Source of the DNA: a virus
Direction: 5' to 3' (one strand)
DNA: 44,982 nucleotides
UHGV virus genome: UHGV-0308808
Below are positions 9,119-30,498 of this stretch, piece by piece. The notes beneath the pieces are model-generated. The model made no database searches, had not been told where the DNA came from, and saw only the letters and a program-made list of their open reading frames with translations. Numbering within the stretch: the stretch's first letter is position 1; the number at the start of each line of letters is the position of its first letter. The position numbers and the translations under genes are program-made.

Positions 9119-9291
9119 TTCTGTACCTCCTTAAATATTTGTTTGTCTACCTTGCTTAAGGGCAGAATAAAAGCCCCAATAAATTATTAGGGCTAATATT
9201 CTAAGCTTAATCAAACAAACATTTAAGTACCCATACGGGTTCTAGGTAATTAAATTATAGCAAGTTTTTGACAAAAAGTCAAATTGTGATT

Positions 9292-9365
9292 AATCTACTG
9301 AATAGAGTGTCCTAGAGTTAAATAAGACTTGGCAGTCGGTCTAGGATGCTCTCTTGAGTAGATTA
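9292..9365 (+). repeat. 74-bp direct repeat, copy 1. It is internally an imperfect hairpin (ATCTACTGAATAGAGTGTCCTAG ... CTAGGATGCTCTCTTGAGTAGAT).
   Basis: 72/74 identical to 11478-11551. Confidence 0.8.
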
Positions 9366-11437: not shown

Positions 11438-11477
11438 AAAAAATCTCCCCTTATAAAAAATATTTATTCAATAGCAT

Positions 11478-11551
11478 AATCTACTGAATAGAGTGTCCTA
11501 GAGTTAAAAAAGACTTGGCGGTCGGTCTAGGATGCTCTCTTGAGTAGATTA
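11478..11551 (+). repeat. 74-bp direct repeat, copy 2
   Basis: 72/74 identical to 9292-9365. Confidence 0.8.
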
Positions 11552-18568: not shown

Positions 18569-18610
18569 ATAAAAAAGGACATTGGAAATTGAATAAAAAG
18601 TTGAGAAATA

Positions 18611-18690
18611 ACTTGTAATTAAAGGAATAGTAAGGTAATATACACACAACCTAAGAAATACAAGGCTAGAGAGCCAATAAGGAGGACATT
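18611..18690 (+). promoter_or_regulatory. conserved promoter-leader element, copy A. It comprises TTGTAA, a 17-bp spacer, TAATAT, and a 5'UTR with AAGGAGGA.
   Basis: Near-identical to 21584-21664 and 22084-22140. Confidence 0.5.
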
Positions 18691-19224
18691 ATGGAGTTTA
18701 TAACTAAATTAAAATTAGAGGATAAGGTTGTGGTCACAGATCCTTGCTACTGTTACGAACCACAAAGAGGGATAGTACTTTTGAATATCCAAGCTGGAGA
18801 ATATAAATGTTGTGTTATTTATAATAAAGAAAACAGAGTAAAAGAAGCAATAATTTTACATGAAAGCTTATCAATTTATGAGCAAGAAGGTTATTTGTGG
18901 TTACAGGATGGCTTCATTTATGTTGATGCTGCCATAGCTGGAGTGATTAATTATAGCTTACATGAAGAGATGAGAAGATGTAAAAATAGGAATGAAAAAA
19001 AATGGGAAGATAAATATTATAGAGAAATATGCGAGTTATTCTCCCAAGATACCGATGCTATATGTTTTAGAGAAAACTCTTTCATTACTAGTACTGGATG
19101 GGGTGATGGAAGATATGAAGTTTATGTTACTAAGAACAATAATAAAATCCTTGGTATAAAAATAATCTATGACGAGGATGAAGAAGAGTTTGAAGATGAC
19201 TGGGAAGATGAAGAAGAATACTAA
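18691..19224 (+). CDS. hypothetical protein with an acidic C-terminal tail (DEDEEEFEDDWEDEEEY)
   Basis: 177-aa ORF driven by promoter-leader copy A. Confidence 0.45.
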   Translation: MEFITKLKLEDKVVVTDPCYCYEPQRGIVLLNIQAGEYKCCVIYNKENRVKEAIILHESLSIYEQEGYLWLQDGFIYVDAAIAGVINYSLHEEMRRCKNRNEKKWEDKYYREICELFSQDTDAICFRENSFITSTGWGDGRYEVYVTKNNNKILGIKIIYDEDEEEFEDDWEDEEEY

Positions 19225-19375: not shown

Positions 19376-20809
19376 ATGTCGAATAGTTCTTCTTTTCCTG
19401 CTAAAATTTCAGCTATTTATTGCAGGGAAAGCACAGAAAAGCAAAATATACAAAGTCTTATAGATATGTGTAAAAAAGCTGCTAAAAAAATAAATCTTCA
19501 AAATATAAAAGTTTATTATGATGTAGCATCTGGGTACAATAAAGACAGAGAACAATATAGTAAATTAAAAGAAGATATCCAAAATAATTTAGTTGATACT
19601 TTAGTATTGTATGAAAGTTCTAGGCTTACAAGAGATGAATTGGAGCATCATATATTTTATGGATTATTAAGAGTTCATAATGTTAAAGTTTATACTGTTA
19701 CACATGGTTGGTTAGACTTACAAGATGCTGATGATACCTTTCTGACTAATCTTTTAAATTTATTAGATGCTAGAGAGGGAAGGAAAACAGCTAAAAGAAG
19801 TAAGGACAGAATGACTGAATTAGCAGAGCAAGGGAGATGGACTGGAGGACCAGCTCCCTTGGGATATAAATTAGTTAATAAAGAGCTGGTAATAGTTCCA
19901 GAGGATGCAGAAAAGGTTAAAACTATTTTTAAACTTTTTCTTGATGGAAAAACCAGACAATCCATTGCTAATTTTTTTGGATATGAAGTAAAAAAGGTTA
20001 GAAGATTATTAGAAAATCCCGTCTACATTGGAAAATTAAAATTCCATTCTGTTGAAATAATTAATAAGAAAAAAATTCTTCATAAAGATTATAAAGTGTT
20101 GAATGGGATCCATGAGCCTATTATAGATGAAAGTACTTTTTCCCTGGTACAAGGTAAATTAAAAAATATTAAGGTTGAAAGAAATACAGATGTATATATC
20201 TTTAAAGATTTAATAAAATGTACTTGTGGAAGAAAGATGTATCGGGTTGTAAATAAATATAATTATTTAAAAAAATCAACCAATGAAATTTCTAGAAAAA
20301 CAGAGAACCTATATTATTGTAGAACTTCTGATAAATATAAAAGTCTTGGGTGTGGTGCTATTGGTATTCATGAAGAAGAGTTATTTGAAGAAGTTATGGC
20401 TTCTTTAAAAAAAATTATTTTTTCTTTAGAAGTAGAGAACATTGATACCAAATTTGATGATTATCAATCTCAATTAGTTCTTTATAAAAAAGAGTTGGCT
20501 TCTCTCTCTGGAAAAGAAGAACTCCTAGCCAGGCAGTTATTAAACTCTCTTATATCTGAGGAAGTTTTCGAAAAGTTAATGAAAGAGTTAAAAGAAAAAA
20601 AGGCGTTCCTGGAGGAAAAAATCAAAAATTTAACTACATTAATTACTAATAAAAAAAATACTAATAAAAATTCAGAGATATTAAAAAAATATTTTTTTAA
20701 ATTAGAAAAGGAAAAAGCTCCAGAAAAAATAAATAATTTTTTAAAACTTATAATAGATGAAATCGAAATGGTAAATGATTATAGATTCTACATCCATTTA
20801 AAATTTTAG
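19376..20809 (+). CDS. large serine recombinase (resolvase/invertase catalytic domain, recombinase domain and zinc ribbon)
   Basis: The N-terminus has AIYCRESTEKQ, the serine-recombinase catalytic motif. C-terminal Cys clusters are CTCGRKMY and YYCRTSDKYKSLGC. Length is 477 aa. Confidence 0.8.
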   Translation: MSNSSSFPAKISAIYCRESTEKQNIQSLIDMCKKAAKKINLQNIKVYYDVASGYNKDREQYSKLKEDIQNNLVDTLVLYESSRLTRDELEHHIFYGLLRVHNVKVYTVTHGWLDLQDADDTFLTNLLNLLDAREGRKTAKRSKDRMTELAEQGRWTGGPAPLGYKLVNKELVIVPEDAEKVKTIFKLFLDGKTRQSIANFFGYEVKKVRRLLENPVYIGKLKFHSVEIINKKKILHKDYKVLNGIHEPIIDESTFSLVQGKLKNIKVERNTDVYIFKDLIKCTCGRKMYRVVNKYNYLKKSTNEISRKTENLYYCRTSDKYKSLGCGAIGIHEEELFEEVMASLKKIIFSLEVENIDTKFDDYQSQLVLYKKELASLSGKEELLARQLLNSLISEEVFEKLMKELKEKKAFLEEKIKNLTTLITNKKNTNKNSEILKKYFFKLEKEKAPEKINNFLKLIIDEIEMVNDYRFYIHLKF

Positions 20810-21405: not shown

Positions 21406-21583
21406 TGTTTTATTCGTTTGTATTTTCGGTTTTTTTCTTGCGGAAAAGACCAATTCCATCTCCAAATGGTTGCTGGTTTAATAAAAAAATAAATATATCT
21501 ATGCCCCCAGCATTTCTCCTTTATTACTAATTATAGCATTTCTAATTTTAATAAACAATATTTTTCTAATTTCCTTAGAAATG

Positions 21584-21664
21584 ACTTGTAATTAAAAGAA
21601 TAGTAAGGTAATATACACACAACCTAAGAAATACAAGGCTAGAGAGCCAATAAGGAGGATTATA
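21584..21664 (+). promoter_or_regulatory. conserved promoter-leader element, copy B
   Basis: ACTTGTAATTAAAAGAATAGTAAGGTAATATACACACAACCTAAGAAATACAAGGCTAGAGAGCCAATAAGGAGGA. Confidence 0.5.
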
Positions 21665-22045
21665 ATGGAATATAAAGATTATAGGGATTATATGTATGAT
21701 GATTTAGAAAAAAGAGAAGAAAATTTAAAAATAATAGCTGAAATTGCAGGAGATATGTTTGATGATTTCCTGGAAAAAACACAAAGGCAATATGAAAGAG
21801 GAAGCTTATATCTTGTGGCTGAACTAGAAGTGAATGATGAATTAGAAAATTATATTGAAATGGACAAAGAAGAATTAAAAGTTTTCTATGCTACTACATT
21901 AAGAACTTTAAAAAAGTTTTTAGGTGATGACCTAAATGGAATGGGAATTTTTGAAAGTTATTCAATAATTGAAAGGATTAAATATTCATATACGGGTAAA
22001 GTAAAAAAGATTATTTTAACTGTAGAAACAACTGTAAAAAGTTAG
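21665..22045 (+). CDS. hypothetical protein
   Basis: 126-aa ORF driven by promoter-leader copy B. Confidence 0.45.
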   Translation: MEYKDYRDYMYDDLEKREENLKIIAEIAGDMFDDFLEKTQRQYERGSLYLVAELEVNDELENYIEMDKEELKVFYATTLRTLKKFLGDDLNGMGIFESYSIIERIKYSYTGKVKKIILTVETTVKS

Positions 22046-22083
22046 TGGGAATCCACTAACTTTTATTTTACTTTTCATAAATA

Positions 22084-22140
22084 ACTTGCAATTAAGAGAA
22101 TAGTAAGGTAATATACACACAACCTAAGAAATATAGAGGA
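22084..22140 (+). promoter_or_regulatory. conserved promoter-leader element, copy C (truncated leader)
   Basis: ACTTGCAATTAAGAGAATAGTAAGGTAATATACACACAACCTAAGAAATA followed by TAGAGGAG. Confidence 0.45.
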
Positions 22141-23972: not shown

Positions 23973-24126
23973 CTTCTCCTTTTTTAGCTTTTAATTTAAA
24001 ACTATCTATATAATCTTTAGTTCCTTCTTTAAAAGGTCTTTTAAAAAAGTTGGCTCTTATATGTAGTACTTCAAGTGCACTTAAAATTACTAAAAATATT
24101 GTTATTATTATCCATACTTTTGTCAT
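23956..24126 (-). CDS. small TM protein (56 aa) overlapping the endolysin start; not in the ORF track
   Basis: MTKVWIIITIFLVILSALEVLHIRANFFKRPFKEGTKDYIDSFKLKAKKGEDEDVK has an N-terminal TM helix and a charged tail. Confidence 0.3.
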   Translation of the reverse strand: MTKVWIIITIFLVILSALEVLHIRANFFKRPFKEGTKDYIDSFKLKAKKGEDEDVK

Positions 24127-24139
24127 TTATCTTCACTCC

Positions 24140-24673
24140 TTATAAACTTTTTACTATGTCTGCTATCTTATTGATTTCAACTTCTAGTTCTTGCATCTTT
24201 TCTATAATTAGTTGTATTTCCTCTTGAGTACTAAATTTAGAATTTTCCAAAGCTTTTTTATTCTCCTCAAGCTTTGAATATTCCAGTATCTTATCAGCTC
24301 TCATTTTAACAAACTCATCATGTGTAGTTCCTTCATACCAGATATGATTTTCTTTATCCCAAGCCTTTTTGTAATATCCTAATTTCTCATCATACTCAAC
24401 TTTAATAAGCTTTCCATTTTCTATATATTCTCCATCATCAAGAACTATAATTCCCTCTATTTTTAGTTCTTCTTGAGTTTTTTCTCTAATCAAATTAGTT
24501 TCTTTATCTATAATAGGATATTGTAATTTATCTTTAGAAGCATACATTCCCTCTTCATTCCAAATTGGATAAAACTCTTGAGGATTCTCTATAAACTCTT
24601 CATAATTAGTAACATATGGTTGCCCTATTAGTTCAAGTTCTTTGTTGTAAATGTAAACTATTATATTCTCCAT
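24140..24673 (-). CDS. hypothetical protein
   Basis: 177-aa ORF between the recombinase and the lysis genes. Confidence 0.4.
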   Translation of the reverse strand: MENIIVYIYNKELELIGQPYVTNYEEFIENPQEFYPIWNEEGMYASKDKLQYPIIDKETNLIREKTQEELKIEGIIVLDDGEYIENGKLIKVEYDEKLGYYKKAWDKENHIWYEGTTHDEFVKMRADKILEYSKLEENKKALENSKFSTQEEIQLIIEKMQELEVEINKIADIVKSL

Positions 24674-24920
24674 GATTTTCTCCTTTTTTTCTTATTTTAT
24701 GTGTAAATTATTGAATTTCATCAAAGATTAAAAAAATTTAAAATGTAAAACTCTTTATAAAATATAGATTTCTAAACTTTCGAAATAAATTAGCAAATAC
24801 TTTTTGAAGTAGAAGTAATTTTTATTAAAAAATATAGAAAGCTAAGTAAAATAAGACTTTTTAATCTTTAAAAAATTTTAGTTTATGCATAAATTCAATA
24901 ATTTATTCAAATTTTTAGGC

Positions 24921-25880
24921 TTAAATTAGCCCTTTTTCTCTCTTTAATTGCCTAATTTTTTCTCTATTTTCTGCCCCTGTTTTTGCTTTAATATAATGCT
25001 CTCTAGTAGTATTTATATTATTATGATTAGCAAATTCAGAAGCTGTATTTATATCTGCTATATTCTTTAAAAGGTTTATAGCTGTTTTTCTGAGAGTATG
25101 AGGGTATAACTTATCATTTCCTAATAACTCTCCTATCTTTTTTATTCTACTTCTAATAGTAGATTGAGCCATCTGTCTACATTGTCCACCTTCCTTTGTT
25201 ATAAATAAATAATCTGATACTAAATTATTCTCTTTTCTATACTCTAGCCATTCTTGTAACACCTTTTCAGTATTATCAAGAAAAATTACATCAACTATCT
25301 TATTACCTTTTTCTTTTACATCTTTAAAATACCCCTCTTTTAAGTTTAATTGTGAAAGTTTTAAATTTTGTATTGCTGAAATTCTATTAGCACTTTCTAG
25401 GAATAATTCCCAAAGTAATCTAGATTGAATATCAAATTTCTTTGAATTATGTTGCATAAGTATTCTAGCTTTGATTATGTCCTCTATTGTAAGATAATAG
25501 CTTTCTCTTCTCTTATCAAAACTACCTTTTTTTAACCTATCTAATTTATGCTGAAATGGATGATGAGATATTAAATCTCTTTTCACACACCAGATATAGA
25601 ATGAAGAGATAGCTGTAAGCTTGTTATTTATTGTCTGATTATTGTTACCAGCTTCCCTACAATGATTTATATACCTCTCTAAAATAGAGACACAATTTTT
25701 TATTGTACTATCGCTTAATAATAGTCTATTCCCTTCATATTTCTGTAAATACTTCATATACTGTTTCATATTACTCTTATAAACTCTATAAGTAGTATTT
25801 AAAGTTTCATAGTTCCTTGCTTTGTTACTCTCTAAATACATTTGATAAACTTCCATATTAGCTTTGTTAAATTTTTCCAT
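24921..25880 (-). CDS. tyrosine site-specific recombinase, proposed shufflon recombinase (Rci-like role). The start is re-assigned to ATG 25880 (MEKFNK), preceded by AGGAGGA.
   Basis: Catalytic residues are conserved: the Arg in ESANRIS, the His/Arg in HTLRKTAIN, and the Tyr in REHY. The gene sits immediately next to the half-site at 25934-25947. Confidence 0.75.
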   Translation of the reverse strand: MEKFNKANMEVYQMYLESNKARNYETLNTTYRVYKSNMKQYMKYLQKYEGNRLLLSDSTIKNCVSILERYINHCREAGNNNQTINNKLTAISSFYIWCVKRDLISHHPFQHKLDRLKKGSFDKRRESYYLTIEDIIKARILMQHNSKKFDIQSRLLWELFLESANRISAIQNLKLSQLNLKEGYFKDVKEKGNKIVDVIFLDNTEKVLQEWLEYRKENNLVSDYLFITKEGGQCRQMAQSTIRSRIKKIGELLGNDKLYPHTLRKTAINLLKNIADINTASEFANHNNINTTREHYIKAKTGAENREKIRQLKREKGLI

Positions 25881-25933
25881 TTTGTTAAAATCCTCCTGTA
25901 ATTTAATTTTGACACTATATTGTATCAAATTTT

Positions 25934-25947
25934 AAATTACAGAATTT
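25934..25947 (+). repeat. crossover site 1 (boundary half-site, AAATTACAGAATTT on the plus strand)
   Basis: Read directly. The left arm is degenerate. Confidence 0.8.
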
Positions 25948-26245
25948 CATTATATCTAGTGGTTCTAACACTAATGGATATTATAGAAAATATTCAGATG
26001 GATTTATAGAACAATTTGGTACTTTTAATTTTAGTGGTGGAACTAATGCTTCTATTAAAAGAACTTTACCTATAAGTATGAAAACTACAAATTATATTAT
26101 AGTATGTAATCCTAATTTTGCTTTAGAGCGAAACTCAGCCGCTTGGGGTATTGTTAATCCTACAGCTAAAACAACTACAACAATAACTTTTAAAAAAGCT
26201 CATTCAGAAACTACAGATGTTTACTGGTATGTATGTGGATATTAA
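25934..26245 (+). other. silent fiber C-terminal cassette D (+), 103 aa: KLQNFIISSGSNTNGYYRKYSDGF...VYWYVCGY
   Basis: In-frame from site 1, with no start codon or RBS. Confidence 0.7.
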
Positions 26246-26550
26246 GTACCTAAAGTTCTCCAATAAATTTTATTCCCTCTTTCAGCTTGAACTTTAAAAT
26301 TATTTAATGTAATACTATGTATTAGAAATTCTGCTGATTCAGTCCAAAATTCTGTATTTCCTCTGTTTGTAGCACTAATATTATAATTAATATTAGTATA
26401 TTTTATAGGAAGAGTAATTAAAGTTGCACGAGTTCCACCATTAGGATATGATACAATACCACCTTGTTCAATTATTCCATTAGAATATTTTATATAATAT
26501 GTTCCATCACTATTAAACTTCATATCAAGTATCTGAGGTAAATTCTGTAA
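26242..26550 (-). other. silent cassette E (-), 102 aa: LQNLPQILDMKFNSDGTYYIKYSNGIIEQGG...WRTLGT. It is convergent with D.
   Basis: In-frame from the minus-strand arm of site 2. It includes track ORF 26242..26523. Confidence 0.7.
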
Positions 26551-26561
26551 TTACAGAATTT
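26540..26561. repeat. crossover site 2, perfect 22-bp palindrome AAATTCTGTAATTACAGAATTT
   Basis: Read directly. Confidence 0.85.
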
Positions 26562-26823
26562 CATTAATGTTGGAACAAGTTATTGTTATATAGGAGGTAT
26601 CTTAATCCAATGGGGAACATTAAGCGGATTGAAAGCTAGTACTACTATTTACCAAACTTTTCCTAAAGCATTTAAAAATACTAATTATTCTGTTGTATAT
26701 CAAAAAATTAGTGCTGACCACAGCAATAATACTCCTATGAAAACTTCTGTAAAAGAAACAACTAGATTTGGAGTATATTCTTATGGAGTTTCTAGTGTAG
26801 ACTGGTTAGCAATAGGGGTTTAA
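26551..26823 (+). other. silent cassette F (+), 90 aa: LQNFINVGTSYCYIGGILIQWG...VDWLAIGV
   Basis: In-frame from site 2. It includes track ORF 26629..26823. The codon before the L codon is TAA. Confidence 0.7.
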
Positions 26824-27062
26824 TATCCGATTGCTAACCAAGGAATAGATCTTGGCTTCGAACTAGCTCCAAAGTTCATATCATTAAAATAAAAATATTC
26901 ATTAGTCCAACTTATAGTAGGATTAGCACCAGCAGTAACAATTGTAAAACAGGTATTAAATTTCACTGGAAAAGTTACTTTACTAGAACCAGATTTACCC
27001 CACTGTAATAACAGTTTTCCAATATAACAATAATTACTGTTCATTGTAGTTAAATTCTGTAA
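26820..27062 (-). other. silent cassette G (-), 80 aa: LQNLTTMNSNYCYIGKLLLQWG...IPWLAIGY
   Basis: In-frame from site 3. It includes track ORF 26820..27044. It is convergent with F, with the stops overlapping. Confidence 0.7.
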
Positions 27063-27073
27063 TTACAGAATTT
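27052..27073. repeat. crossover site 3, perfect 22-bp palindrome
   Basis: Read directly. Confidence 0.85.
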
Positions 27074-27353
27074 AAATAATAATTTTTATGAATACTATCC
27101 TAACACAAGAGAATTTAATATTCCTATAGAATTTAACAATGCTTTAATTTCAGTATGGACTTACAATACAACTACTGCTAGTATGGAAGATACTCCAATG
27201 TATCTTTTTACTTTTTTAGTAAAAGATATTGATGTTTTTAAATTCTATAATGGTGTTAGTGGTGGATATGCTTCAATTGATTATAATAATAAAAAATTAA
27301 TTAGTTCATCTATTCATTACATAAGAAAGATAAATATTTTTATATTTAATTAA
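27063..27353 (+). other. silent cassette H (+), 96 aa: LQNLNNNFYEYYPNTREF...IRKINIFIFN
   Basis: In-frame from site 3. Confidence 0.65.
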
Positions 27354-27357
27354 ATAT

Positions 27358-27627
27358 TTAAATACCAATAGCTATCCAGTCAAAACTCATTGTTCCAGAA
27401 ACTCCACCAACGTCTTGAGAATAATATGTAAAATAAGTAGAAGTAACATTAGTTACTTGTAATATATTATCTATGTTTGAAGGTTTTTCTGTCCTTAAAC
27501 TTTGGGAAGTTAAGACTACAATATTTTTTTTAATAAAAGGAGATGAAAATATAAGTTTTCCAGTTTTAGCATTTGTTATATTTTCTAATCTACCTATTTT
27601 TATTTCAATACCAAGTAAATTCTGTAA
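27358..27627 (-). other. silent cassette I (-), 89 aa: LQNLLGIEIKIGRLENITNAK...MSFDWIAIGI
   Basis: In-frame from site 4, convergent with H. Confidence 0.65.
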
Positions 27628-27638
27628 TTACAGAATTT
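27617..27638. repeat. crossover site 4, perfect 22-bp palindrome
   Basis: Read directly. Confidence 0.85.
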
Positions 27639-27927
27639 AGGCGATATCAATAAAAATACAATAGGACATTTTACGGATATAACAGGAATTAAATTTTGTT
27701 GGGGAACAACAGGAACATTATCTGCCTCAAGTAATACTTTAATAACTTTTTCAGAGGCATTTAAAGAAAAAGTTTTTTCTATTCAAGCTACAATATTATC
27801 TAATTCAGGAATAGCAGGAAATAAGTCAGATTATGTTTTTGTAAACTCCATAACTTTATCTAATTTTAAATTAAAAATTGGTTCTGATTATGGATTTGCA
27901 GTATCTTGGTTAGCAATAGGCTATTAA
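27628..27927 (+). other. silent cassette J (+), 99 aa: LQNLGDINKNTIGHFTDITGIKFCWGTTG...FAVSWLAIGY
   Basis: In-frame from site 4. Confidence 0.7.
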
Positions 27928-28178
27928 ATTCCAATTGCTAGCCAAGGAATTTTTACACTATTAGGTTTCCCAGATACTCCCCAGTTTGTATCGTTAAAAT
28001 TAAAACTAGTTAAAGTCCATGAAATAGTTGGAGTATTACCAGATGTTATAACAGTAAAAACTGAACTTTTAAAAGGAATAGGAAAACTTTTACTTCCAGT
28101 TGTTGTAGCTCCAGTTTGAATAATAAGTCCATTGGTAAATTGGATATATTTACCAATGGAGTTAGAATTTAATACCTG
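27924..28178 (-). other. orphan cassette C (-), 84 aa: TGLNSNSIGKYIQFTNGLIIQTG...KIPWLAIGI. It is homologous to cassette G but lacks its own crossover site, and begins 1 nt after the cassette B stop in the +1 frame.
   Basis: Manual translation. It shares SK.FP.PF and TPTISWT motifs with G. Confidence 0.5.
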
Positions 28179-28512
28179 TTATTTTAAAGATAGATGAACC
28201 ACCATCTTTACCAAAAATATAAAAGGATTGTTTATTAGCTAAAAATCTATAATCAAGACTCCCACCTTTTGGTAATAAATATCTATCTCCAATTTGATTA
28301 TCACTAGTACCATCAGAATATTTTAAATCAGTTACTAAAATAAATTGACTTTCTTCATCTACTTGTCTTGTTCCAGTCCAATTGCCATAAGTAATTATAA
28401 TAGCATCAAAGTTAGTAAGTGGTTTATTTAAATTCAATACAGTATTATTTGGAGATTGTGAAGTTGTATTATATAAAATTTCTATTTTAAATGTAGATAA
28501 ATTCTGTAATTT
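28162..28512 (-). other. silent cassette B (-), 116 aa: KLQNLSTFKIEILYNTTSQSPNNTVLNLNKPLTNFD...ITGIKF. It lies directly 3' of the fiber stop, in the same orientation.
   Basis: In-frame from site 5. It includes track ORF 28162..28437. Confidence 0.65.
28499..28512 (-). repeat. crossover site 5 (half-site AAATTACAGAATTT on the minus strand), immediately after the fiber stop codon
   Basis: Read directly. Confidence 0.8.
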
Positions 28513-30498
28513 TTATATATATGGGAAAAAGGTTATAGATTGAGAGTCATACCCTCCTGCACAATAGATTACGTCTTCTTTCTTTACGGGATATATTAAT
28601 CTAGTAGCAGAACTATCTCTTGTTCTATAATCTAGATTAGTACCATTTATCCTTATTGTAGTAGTTATATCATTTGAACCATAGAAGTGTATCTGAATAA
28701 TTCCATCTTGAAGTATTGTGTTATTTTTACTCCAATTTAATTTTTGTCCTTTTGAATAGTCAGGAGTTCTATTGAAATTCTGTAATTTACCCAATAAATC
28801 ATTATTAGATATTGCTTCAAAGTAATTTGCGTCTGCATAGTTTATACTTGTAGCTTTTATACATTTGTAAACTTTTTTTGTGGTACTATCATAATAGGCA
28901 TAGTTTACTGTCTTTGCACTAGAAGTATTAAGACTTCCTCCGTATGTAAGTCCTAATATCTCGGCTAATTTAGCTCCTTCTAATACTGTATTTGAAGTAG
29001 TTCCAAAATTTTTATTAAAAGCTCCATTTTTTTTGAAGGCTGGTTCTGCTCCTATTCCACTAGCTGTAATATTAATACTTTTAGCTGCTGCTCCATCATA
29101 GCTCACTGGATTTTGTCCATTCATCTTTATTTCAAGAGCATTAGGATTTTTCATACTTGTTGGAAAATCTGTAATATTTGCTTTTGTATGAGTATGACTA
29201 GAATCAGCAGCTCCTATGCTAGCTGGAGTAATATTAATATTTTTAGTAGCTGCTCCATCATATGTATAAGCAGTTCCACTATTTAATTGAATAGATAAGG
29301 CATAAGGATTTTTCATACTAGCAGGAAAGTCTGTGATATTTGCTTTTGTATGAGTATGACTGCTTGGAGTAAAAGAATTAGGTTTTCCTGTAATATCACT
29401 CCAAGTAATATTTGTCCATTGAGCAGCTCCAGATGATAACCATTTTAGAAAATTTCCACTAACCCCATTTGCAGGTATATGATTATTTCCATTCCCAGTA
29501 GGATGAGTATATTCAGGAGTTCCATGTAATGTTCCATCTTCATCAACTGTTAAATTATTCCCTACCTTTATTCTTCCTAATTGTGTTTTAGTTGCTTTTT
29601 TTACTAGCTCATTATAAAGTTCATTAATGGCTCCAACTATTGTTTTTACCACGGTTTTTAGAGTGCTATCTTCTTTATTTTGTTTAGTTTCATTTAAAAT
29701 TTTTCCTTGTTTACCTGAAAGAGCTTTTGTAGTACTATCAGTTGTAAGATTATCTACTACATTTAATTGAATATCATTATCATTAACAATAATACCATCA
29801 TTTTTAGATACAATAGAGGTCCTTCCAGAACTATCAACAGTTAATCCTTTACCTATAATTATTCTTCCTAATATAGTTTTTGATGCTATTTTAGAAATTT
29901 CTGTTAATAAGTTCTGTGCAGTACCAGTATAACCACCTTTATCTAATTTATTAGTAAAAAGTTCATTTATTGCTTCCCAAACAATTTTGGCAGCTGTCAA
30001 TAATCTATTTTCATGTAAATTTTGTTTTTTAGCCAATTCTTTATCTAAATATTCTTTATCTACCCATAATTCTTTTCCTGTCCAGTTAACTATTGTAGTT
30101 TCATTATTAGTAGCCATTATATTAACATAATATCTAAATTTGATTGGTGTCTTGCTTGCTGGCGGCATCCAGGTAGCTTCATCACCTTCATTTATATACC
30201 AGTACAGAATTTCTTCTTCTTCATCTAATGCGTATATTCCTATTTCTCTTGGAAAGTATCCAGTTTCAATATCTTCATTACTAAATAGTACAGTTAATTT
30301 CAAATTATTTTCTATTTGTTTTTTTTCTAATATTTCAACTTCTTGTTTTATTGCTTTTATATTAGTAAATGTGCTAGGATCCTCATCATCTGATATTTTT
30401 CCATCTCCTATTTTTACTTTAACTAATTTTATTCCTTCTCCTGTTGCTTGGCATTTTGCTAAATATTCGCTCCCTCTCTTTGTAATACCATCAAACAT
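28513..30498 (-). CDS. tail fiber protein. The currently expressed variable C-terminus (cassette A) runs 28513-28788.
   Basis: 661 aa, Ser/Thr/Gly/Asn-rich. It contains internal near-repeats HTHTKANITDFP[AT]SMKNP. It lies downstream of the baseplate genes and is followed by the shufflon. Confidence 0.75.
   Translation of the reverse strand: MFDGITKRGSEYLAKCQATGEGIKLVKVKIGDGKISDDEDPSTFTNIKAIKQEVEILEKKQIENNLKLTVLFSNEDIETGYFPREIGIYALDEEEEILYWYINEGDEATWMPPASKTPIKFRYYVNIMATNNETTIVNWTGKELWVDKEYLDKELAKKQNLHENRLLTAAKIVWEAINELFTNKLDKGGYTGTAQNLLTEISKIASKTILGRIIIGKGLTVDSSGRTSIVSKNDGIIVNDNDIQLNVVDNLTTDSTTKALSGKQGKILNETKQNKEDSTLKTVVKTIVGAINELYNELVKKATKTQLGRIKVGNNLTVDEDGTLHGTPEYTHPTGNGNNHIPANGVSGNFLKWLSSGAAQWTNITWSDITGKPNSFTPSSHTHTKANITDFPASMKNPYALSIQLNSGTAYTYDGAATKNINITPASIGAADSSHTHTKANITDFPTSMKNPNALEIKMNGQNPVSYDGAAAKSINITASGIGAEPAFKKNGAFNKNFGTTSNTVLEGAKLAEILGLTYGGSLNTSSAKTVNYAYYDSTTKKVYKCIKATSINYADANYFEAISNNDLLGKLQNFNRTPDYSKGQKLNWSKNNTILQDGIIQIHFYGSNDITTTIRINGTNLDYRTRDSSATRLIYPVKKEDVIYCAGGYDSQSITFFPYI
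28775..28788 (-). repeat. crossover site 6 (half-site), inside the fiber gene, encoding KLQNF at the constant/variable boundary
   Basis: Minus-strand reading gives ggt AAA TTA CAG AAT TTc, translating GKLQNF. Confidence 0.8.

Follow-up and report, generated by a model that had tools for sequence, protein, structure and literature searches.

We analyzed the viral genome UHGV-0308808, a stretch of 44,982 bp with 29% G+C (hereafter, the window), in which the 3' end of a tail-fibre gene is followed by an array of short coding cassettes that start at copies of a 14-bp sequence, with the gene for a tyrosine recombinase at the far end of the array. It is very likely that the region 25934-28788 is a shufflon, i.e., a multiple-inversion system, located where the tail-fibre gene of a temperate, P2/Mu-like phage has its 3' end. 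The host is probably Fusobacterium mortiferum, judging by the NCBI name of a protein (P0001) in which the same fibre is fused to one of the cassettes. Labels of the form L### denote contigs and records from public collections, and labels of the form P#### denote database proteins.

Crossover sites, tip cassettes and the tail-fibre gene

The locus, from the recombinase to the fibre, consists of the following features.

24921-25880, minus strand: tyrosine recombinase, Xer-like, 319 aa; Pfam Phage_integrase (8e-26) and SAM-like N-terminal domains
25934-25947, plus strand: boundary site S1; starts cassette D and adjoins the recombinase gene
25934-26245, plus strand: cassette D including S1, 102 aa; Pfam Gp53-like_C (1.4e-5)
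26242-26553, minus strand: cassette E, 102 aa; Gp53-like_C (2.3e-5)
26540-26561, palindrome: double site S2; starts cassettes E (minus) and F (plus)
26548-26823, plus strand: cassette F, 90 aa; Gp53-like_C (1.2e-10)
26820-27065, minus strand: cassette G, 80 aa; Gp53-like_C (1.8e-6)
27052-27073, palindrome: double site S3; starts cassettes G (minus) and H (plus); breakpoint of the inverted block in L034
27060-27353, plus strand: cassette H, 96 aa; no Pfam match
27358-27630, minus strand: cassette I, 89 aa; H_lectin (4.8e-5) and Gp53-like_C (8.5e-5)
27617-27638, 22-nt perfect palindrome: double site S4; starts cassettes I (minus) and J (plus)
27625-27927, plus strand: cassette J, 99 aa; Gp53-like_C (1.1e-8)
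27924-28184, minus strand: cassette C, a relic; Gp53-like_C (5.8e-7), tip open reading frame (ORF) intact
28162-28498, minus strand: cassette B, 115 aa; points the same way as A and begins right after its stop (TAA AAA TTA CAG...), forming a tandem
28499-28512, minus strand: site S5, directly 3' of the stop codon of cassette A, in the orientation of S6
28513-28774, minus strand: cassette A, 86 aa after KLQNF, plus the stop; the tip now fused to the fibre
28775-28788, minus strand: site S6, AAATTACAGAATTT, encoding K L Q N F; joins the constant fibre to the expressed tip
28789-30498, minus strand: constant part of the fibre, about 570 aa, ending ...ISNNDLLG just before S6
28513-30498, minus strand: complete tail-fibre ORF, 661 aa (constant part and cassette A)

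The 14-mer AAATTACAGAATTT is found exactly at 25934-25947 on the plus strand and at 28499-28512 and 28775-28788 on the minus strand; with T as the first base, it is found in back-to-back copies at 26540-26561, 27052-27073 and 27617-27638. There are, therefore, three single sites (S1, S5 and S6) and three double sites (S2, S3 and S4), at exactly the six positions given in an earlier note on this DNA. Each double site is a perfect 22-nt palindrome, AAATTCTGTAATTACAGAATTT, in which two 14-bp cores share 6 bp (TAATTA). With up to two mismatches allowed, the 14-mer has 17 matches in the window, compared to 4.9 +/- 2.1 in shuffled sequences (0 of 100 shuffles reach 17); the number of sites is far beyond the chance expectation. 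Nine copies of the 11-mer core TTACAGAATTT are present in the 44,982 bp, all of them clustered within 25934-28788, four on the plus strand and five on the minus strand, bounding four segments plus a tandem pair. The 14-bp recombination core has the structure AAATT-ACAG-AATTT and encodes K-L-Q-N-(F/L).

The ORF at 28513-30498 is identified as a tail fibre by its Pfam and PHROG matches and by its baseplate gene context: the constant part matches Phage_fiber_rpt (5.5e-10) and the PHROG tail-fibre families (6e-46 and 2e-29), and the ORF is located downstream of the Tail_P2_I, Baseplate_J and GpU genes. At the DNA level, the constant part ends ..TTATTGGGTAAATTACAGAATT; the frame continues as ...NNDLLG-KLQNF, followed by 86 residues and the stop. 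The earlier note described the same GKLQNF junction and variable tail, which it counted as 87 aa, a trivial difference. The constant part also carries a 162-bp (54-aa) repeat unit (SHTHTKANITDFP...) at 29048-29361 on the minus strand, in two copies in the window and in three copies in L034, L035 and L037 (constant parts of 624 aa vs. 570 aa); this difference is either copy-number variation or an assembly collapse.

Reading from the codon before TTA, all nine cores open a (K/*)LQN(F/L) frame that extends for 81-116 codons to the stop (80-115 aa). Under a null model based on base composition, with 7.3% stops per codon, the chance of each cassette frame staying open is 1.5e-4 to 2e-3. An empirical null, with random starts in the window (10% with at least 80 open codons), was dropped in favor of the composition null because the window is mostly coding. 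The cassettes have no start signal of their own, and each begins with the same core. Thus, every site is in frame with a (K)LQN(F/L) cassette, and the cassettes form the convergent pairs D/E, F/G, H/I and J/(C,B), as the earlier note had proposed. The number of cassettes, which it put at nine or ten, is nine intact ones and a relic. The relic, cassette C, lacks an intact site: the sequence at 28171-28184 reads AAATAACAGGTATT (K*QVL), so that the Leu codon is replaced by a stop, and it extends into the 3' end of B. The relative L003 has an intact cassette C with a proper KLQNL site, and in P0003 the fibre carries a C-like tail. Beyond the core, the tips are 76-111 aa long, and the ten cassettes are 13-45% identical among themselves. 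Seven of the ten match Gp53-like_C, a tail-fibre C-terminal domain, and cassette I matches the H-type lectin domain as well; this homology suggests that the tips set receptor specificity.

Natural rearrangements at the sites

The exact recombinase protein is present in 58 blocks of a public collection; ten loci were fetched, and the cassettes were mapped in each of them. The ten contigs with the identical recombinase protein display at least six different cassette arrangements, with a protein identity of 99-100% between corresponding cassettes and the same range (99-100%) for the aligned DNA blocks. The orders for these and additional contigs are listed below from the fibre to the recombinase (rec); a colon separates cassettes that start back to back.

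Window, L037, L038 and L043: fibre-A, B, (C), J:I, H:G, F:E, D-rec
L034: fibre-D, E:F, G-rec (contig of 2.78 Mb, apparently a polished long-read assembly judging by the name)
L035: fibre-B, J:E, D-rec
L036: fibre-B, J:A, I, H-rec (different baseplate genes)
L039: ...J, B-rec
L040: ...A-rec
L041: D, E-rec, i.e., the D/E segment is inverted compared to the window
L046: fibre-G:F
L051: fibre-F:G

These natural rearrangements break exactly at the sites. In L034, a block of 1,132 bp corresponds to window positions 25933-27064 with 100% identity, is reversed relative to its flanks, and ends exactly at S1 and S3. Cassette A, which is the expressed tip in the window, adjoins the recombinase in L040 and L042, and is internal, unfused and 100% identical in L036, where the site that follows A leads into cassette I, not B. 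The order found in L036 can be derived from that of the window by three inversions between oppositely oriented cores. The left flanks are fixed at the junctions (TTATTGGGTAAA at the fibre, TCAAATTTTAAA at S1 and TATATATAAAAA after the stop of A); for example, the fibre flank TTATTGGGTAAA is constant in L034, L035 and L002, and the sequence 3' of the core differs by cassette. At every junction, the sequence 3' of TTACAGAATT differs by cassette. Given that the left flanks are invariant and everything 3' of TTACAGAATT changes, the exchange is placed within AATTACAGAATTT, which is where the strands would cross in the core.

A search with the fibre protein extends this picture: the constant end (ISNNDLL[GS]K-LQN) also precedes D, F, G, E and H, a C-like tail, N3 and some ten other tails in database proteins. 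Altogether, the contigs and proteins provide fibre fusions of A, B, D, E, F, G and H, seven of the nine intact cassettes, in addition to the C-like tail. Cassette B is fused in L035 and L036, and adjoins the recombinase in L039; D is fused in L034 and in P0001; E is fused in P0008 and adjoins the recombinase in L041; F is fused in L002, L051 and many database proteins; G is fused in P0006 / L046; and a tail 97% identical to H is fused in P0014. Alternative junctions, which the earlier note expected, thus exist: contigs with an identical recombinase have other orders and orientations, joined inside AATTACAGAATTT. These natural permutations are already present in public data. As a separate observation, L050 (170-3900) contains a fibre with the F tail, ABC-transporter genes within 270 bp, and no shufflon or recombinase; this locus is probably a truncated prophage remnant.

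The following mechanism would account for the permutations. The Xer-like recombinase would pair two opposed cores and exchange strands inside the shared 13 bp, and the exchange would invert the DNA between the paired cores. The constant-side half of the core would stay in place, and the cassette-side half would travel with the cassette, such that a cassette facing opposite to the fibre would be fused in frame by a single inversion. The cassettes that face the same way as the fibre would need two or more inversions. A population of phages or lysogens would then show a mixture of receptor-binding tips, hedging the host range. The recombinase encoded at 24921-25880 is the likely catalyst of these inversions.

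An alternative is ordinary homologous recombination or module swapping between phages, the repeats being nothing other than the conserved coding sequence for KLQNF. Exchange between phages does occur: in L036, compared to window positions 27617-28787, blocks B..J and A are 100% identical in a backbone with a fibre constant part of 87-89% identity, and L002 and L003 have partly different cassette sets. However, the segments are inverted, not just replaced, and 13 bp of identity is too short for efficient RecA recombination. A protein motif also leaves unexplained the 22-nt palindromes, the non-coding boundary site and the copy after the stop of A, and a dedicated recombinase is located at the boundary in four clades, each with a matching site sequence (see below). 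We consider this explanation very improbable. The identity between L036 and the window changes exactly at the sites, which indicates that cassettes move between backbones at the sites; the route could be two site-specific exchanges or an excised circle.

Another alternative is a fossil shufflon, in which the differences in arrangement are past events and no inversion occurs now in the window phage. The window arrangement is unchanged in L037, L038 (100% identical to the window) and L043, cassette C has already decayed, and no heterogeneity within a sample could be shown, all of which fits this view; given the recurrence of the arrangement, inversion may be slow, or the state of the window may be favored. 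Against a fossil, the recombinase ORF is intact and contains the catalytic motifs, nine of nine cores are perfect, and the existence of permuted copies with 100%-identical cassettes and an identical recombinase implies that the rearrangements are very recent. Furthermore, the contigs L039 and L041 end exactly at a double site, which is expected of a structurally heterogeneous locus and is a typical outcome for an assembler there. A fossil is, accordingly, improbable in our assessment, and inversion is likely to be ongoing within single populations.

It should be noted that the recurrence of the window arrangement is one of several observations that weigh against an active shufflon. The conserved core of 13-14 bp is short for a tyrosine-recombinase site, and the link between enzyme and sites comes from sequence comparison. 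The evidence of rearrangement is a comparison between samples, different fibre fusions having always come from different samples. No fibre fusion of cassette I or J turned up among the contigs and database proteins, and cassettes A, B and H have no Pfam domain match, i.e., these are uncharacterized tips. Finally, L034, L035 and L051 have fewer cassettes, a pattern that fits deletions between cores of the same direction; such variants could be deletions, ancestral differences or chimeric paths of short-read assembly.

The recombinase, a second invertible element and related loci

The ATG of the recombinase gene is at 25880, is preceded by AGGAGG, and lies 53 bp from S1, close to the distance of about 50 bp that was originally estimated. 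The protein scores far below the NCBIfam cutoffs for XerC and XerD; those of its sequence matches in the Protein Data Bank (PDB) that are named as recombinases are XerA, a XerC-like protein and XerD. The motifs SANRIS, HTLRK and NH pair with the corresponding motifs of a homologous PDB chain, and the catalytic Tyr (REHY) was read from the sequence just beyond the end of the PDB alignment; so read, the R...HxxR...H...Y signature appears intact. [quoted passage not shown] An extended -10-like element, TGATACAAT, is located 9 bp from the S1 core in the recombinase promoter region (25881-25933, minus strand). The -35 region overlaps S1, so recombinase bound at S1 could repress its own gene.

One could argue that the tyrosine recombinase is an integrase or a Xer-type dimer-resolution enzyme, and that a different enzyme, e.g., a large serine recombinase, inverts the DNA. 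The homologues in Funu1 and phiRTG5 are labelled 'integrase' in GenBank, and the window does encode a large serine recombinase (19376-20809, plus strand; 477 aa; Resolvase, Recombinase and Zn-ribbon domains), which has a secondary PHROG match to 'DNA invertase'. But this serine enzyme is about 5 kb from the invertible DNA, its best PHROG match is an integrase family (2.4e-75), and it is encoded beside the point at which prophage copies diverge: the integrated copies L034, L035 and L041 match the window only down to about 21444, and beyond this point contain genes that are absent from the window (DUF6173, DUF1904 and Peptidase_M16) and are probably host genes. This suggests an attP near about 21444 and makes the serine enzyme, not the tyrosine enzyme, the likely prophage integrase. 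The tyrosine recombinase gene has the fibre module on one side and the lysis module on the other, is about 3.5 kb away from the divergence point, and accompanies the shufflon on backbones with different flanking genes (L036, L039, L040 and L042). A small serine invertase (about 190 aa) was not found among the ORFs scanned; apart from the 477-aa enzyme, none of these has a Resolvase domain. We give this alternative hardly any credence. The possibility that the tyrosine recombinase is an ordinary integrase, considered at the outset, is likewise not borne out, given its Xer-like domains and the separate large serine recombinase; in Funu1 and phiRTG5, too, the presence of this gene should not count as proof of an integration function.

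Downstream of the recombinase gene there is a second invertible element, followed by a gene that accompanies it.

24705-24904, no strand assigned: second invertible element; inner segment of 172 bp (24719-24890) between inverted repeats AAATTATTGAATTT
24140-24673, minus strand: 177-aa gene, directly downstream of the switch; the lysis genes then follow

The repeat AAATTATTGAATTT is found exactly at 24705-24718 (plus) and 24891-24904 (minus), i.e., in two copies compared to 0.02 expected. It is equal to the shufflon site in 12 of 14 positions, the difference being in the center (ATTG vs. ACAG). The element occupies the space between the recombinase gene, which stops at 24921, and the 177-aa gene (24673) with its ribosome-binding site. 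It has the window orientation in L034-L040 and L043, and is inverted in L041 (inner sequence 100% identical, recombinase identical), in L002 (inner sequence 100% identical, flanks 91%), in L042 and in L003. If read in frame, the switch repeats would give the short stubs KLLNFIKD* and KLLNLCIN*. A scan of 24100-26100 for promoters and terminators yielded 18 promoter-like matches vs. 14 expected and 0 terminators, and is uninformative for the switch.

Related loci were found in other Fusobacterium and in Cetobacterium.

Cetobacterium metagenome-assembled genome, L030: recombinase 77% identical to that of the window; site KLKNL (AAATTAAAGAATTT); five cassettes in tandem runs
F. nucleatum clade, including Funu1: recombinase ~49% identical; site (L/V/M)ENL (xGGAAAAT[CT]T); 2-10 cassettes per locus
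F. necrophorum phage phiRTG5: recombinase 46% identical; site peptide LNNL

The F. nucleatum clade includes many contigs from oral metagenomes. The window motif is absent from Funu1 DNA, and the site of this clade was found by k-mer enrichment upstream of the recombinase. In all clades, the recombinase gene has a conserved -10 element and a ribosome-binding site, and a boundary site is found just upstream of them; where the window has its -10-like element, the F. nucleatum clade has a conserved TATAAT. The layout is the same across the clades, and the site sequence changes with the recombinase clade; this clade-specific pairing of recombinase and site is the best available evidence that the enzyme acts on the sites. 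A Lysinibacillus phage, LC76P1, with a recombinase of 37.5% identity, has no obvious shufflon in its annotated layout, the repeats not having been scanned. In the literature searched, we found no description of such a system in Fusobacterium phages, and the Fusobacterium-phage papers that name Funu1 contain nothing on inversion.

The other clades (F. nucleatum, F. necrophorum and Cetobacterium) have a counterpart of this element, 120-140 bp in length, that directly follows the stop of the recombinase gene; between its repeats and the shufflon site of the same clade, one or two central bases differ. The two orientations of the switch are represented by 11 vs. 13 cases in the F. nucleatum clade, including pairs with an identical inner sequence. 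For example, one chromosome of Fusobacterium sp. oral taxon C10 contains two prophages about 47 kb apart (L032 and L033), which share four (L/I)ENL cassettes but differ in the order of these and have oppositely oriented switches after the recombinase. We infer that the same recombinase flips the second element, and the changed center may keep this element from recombining with the shufflon, by analogy to lox and FRT spacer variants, which are an established means of insulating sets of sites from each other.

The 177-aa gene accompanies the recombinase and the switch across different phage backbones. An AlphaFold2 model of the protein (pLDDT 94) consists of a beta-rich N-terminal domain and a long helical hairpin. 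No Pfam or PHROG family was matched, and the PDB sequence search gave one chance-level match (E 0.74). The model has no significant fold match in the PDB; there is a weak match to a DUF4376 protein (Foldseek E 2.6e-4) and to an uncharacterized viral protein. Relatives of 250 aa have the N-terminal ~120 residues in common and a different C-terminus. As a guess, the protein might be a fibre chaperone. In L045 (7300-7600), a related phage, the fibre ends ...NNDLLSKLLNLCIN* (KLLNLCIN*) at a switch-type site, and the 172-bp segment and a 176-aa gene follow directly after the fibre, with no cassettes and no recombinase. L045 is either an 'empty' state or a deletion product; this suggests that the block of shufflon and recombinase sits between two site-like sequences, like an insertion.

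We put forward tentatively, as a possibility somewhat short of even, that the recombinase serves two mutually insulated sets of sites and that the cassettes form a pool common to phages. The changed center of the switch would stop cross-recombination that would otherwise invert or delete the recombinase gene, and prophages resident in the same host may exchange cassettes at the sites, perhaps through excised circles resembling those of integrons. If true, the phages of F. mortiferum would share a pool of more than 25 tips. The 14-bp core and the apparently insulated second set of sites are possible parts for multiplexed inversion systems.

As for the rest of the genome, the window is 100% identical to L038 (45,123 bp, i.e., 44,982 plus a k-mer overlap of 141 nt) and has the appearance of a complete circular phage genome, with genes for a portal protein, a terminase, a ParA-like ATPase, the serine integrase, lysis and a P2/Mu-like tail. 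A 93-bp direct repeat (94.6% identical) is present at 18604-18695 and 21577-21669, with a third copy of 55 bp at 22079-22133; each copy is just upstream of a plus-strand gene, two of them flank the serine-recombinase block, and the three copies may represent a regulatory region that is repeated. In the early/regulatory region, 9291-9365 and 11477-11551 form another direct repeat, of 75 bp and 97% identity.

Comparison with known systems

The second element resembles fimS of E. coli with FimB/FimE and the promoter invertons of Bacteroides in its size (120-200 bp) and short inverted repeats, in its location beside the gene for a tyrosine recombinase and shortly upstream of a further gene, and in the natural occurrence of both orientations. 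It is unlike them in that no promoter or terminator was identified in it, and in that its repeats are near-copies of the shufflon site.

In the Min (p15B), Gin (Mu), Cin (P1) and Pin systems, a small serine invertase acts on 26-bp sites together with an enhancer and Fis. As in the window, DNA inversion in these systems swaps the C-terminal part of the fibre and changes the host range, and Min has multiple crossover sites. The differences are that these systems switch a fibre-assembly gene together with the tip, whereas the 177-aa gene is outside any cassette, and that the recombinase here is a tyrosine enzyme, the only serine recombinase found being the one of 477 aa.

The shufflon of the IncI1 plasmid R64 consists of convergent promoterless C-terminal cassettes, each starting at a short repeat, with one tyrosine recombinase acting on many sites. 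We compared it from the record NC_005014, in which Rci corresponds to L044:27003-28157. The order and strands are the same (pilV, shufflon and rci correspond to fibre, segments and recombinase), and the boundary sfx repeat is about 50 bp from the start of rci, compared to 53 bp in the window. Conversely, Rci has 384 aa vs. 319 aa here, the two proteins have only PF00589 in common (BLASTP E = 0.14), the sfx sites are paired 19-bp repeats 8 bp apart instead of 14-bp cores that overlap by 6 bp and form a palindrome, and the target is a conjugative pilus adhesin instead of a phage tail fibre. The match to the R64 PilV shufflon stated in the earlier note is, therefore, upheld for the architecture, i.e., order, strands and boundary repeat, but the recombinase is not an orthologue of Rci; the system appears to work like the R64 shufflon without belonging to the Rci family. 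R64 has seven ORFs started by sfx, fewer than the nine live cassettes here (9-10 with the relic). Rci of R64 is reported not to delete between repeats of the same direction, whereas deletion-like variants exist here.

F. nucleatum is a colorectal-cancer-associated bacterium. Funu1 and phiRTG5, phages of F. nucleatum and F. necrophorum, carry the same module as the window; if such phages are used in therapy against F. nucleatum, their lysates should be expected to be mixtures with respect to host range.

The closest precedent is the Rin shufflon, which was reported from Bifidobacterium prophages in 2018, with its enzyme presented as the first tyrosine DNA invertase encoded by a phage (PMC6109161), and from Eggerthella prophages in 2022 (PMC8778435). 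The statement in the earlier note that fibre shufflons driven by tyrosine recombinases are rarely described is fair, but needs to be amended by this precedent (PMC6109161, PMC8778435). Like the window system, Rin is phage-encoded and combines a constant N-terminal receptor-binding part with variable C-terminal cassettes that follow short asymmetric repeats (PMC6109161; PMC8778435); its invertase is Xer-like, has no arm-binding domain, is encoded at the end of the array and is separate from the integrase; and the evidence for it also comes from comparing arrangements (prophage vs. virion). The 11-bp rix repeat of Rin, TTCCCTAACCC, has 0 matches in the window, even with one mismatch, and a tblastn search of the phage collection (E <= 1e-10) returned no Bifidobacterium or Eggerthella record, a collection that may not contain those prophages. 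The hosts of Rin phages are Actinobacteria and the phages are of the siphovirus type, in contrast to Fusobacteriota and a P2/Mu-like baseplate here; the descriptions of Rin mention no overlapping palindromic double sites, no tandem cassettes and no second switch; and the nine live cassettes of the window exceed the five receptor-binding variants of Rin (PMC6109161). Thus, a tyrosine-recombinase shufflon acting on a phage receptor-binding protein is already known, and the Fusobacterium family, of which no account was found in the literature searched, extends the diversification of phage tips by such a shufflon, as opposed to a serine invertase or a retroelement, far from Actinobacteria.

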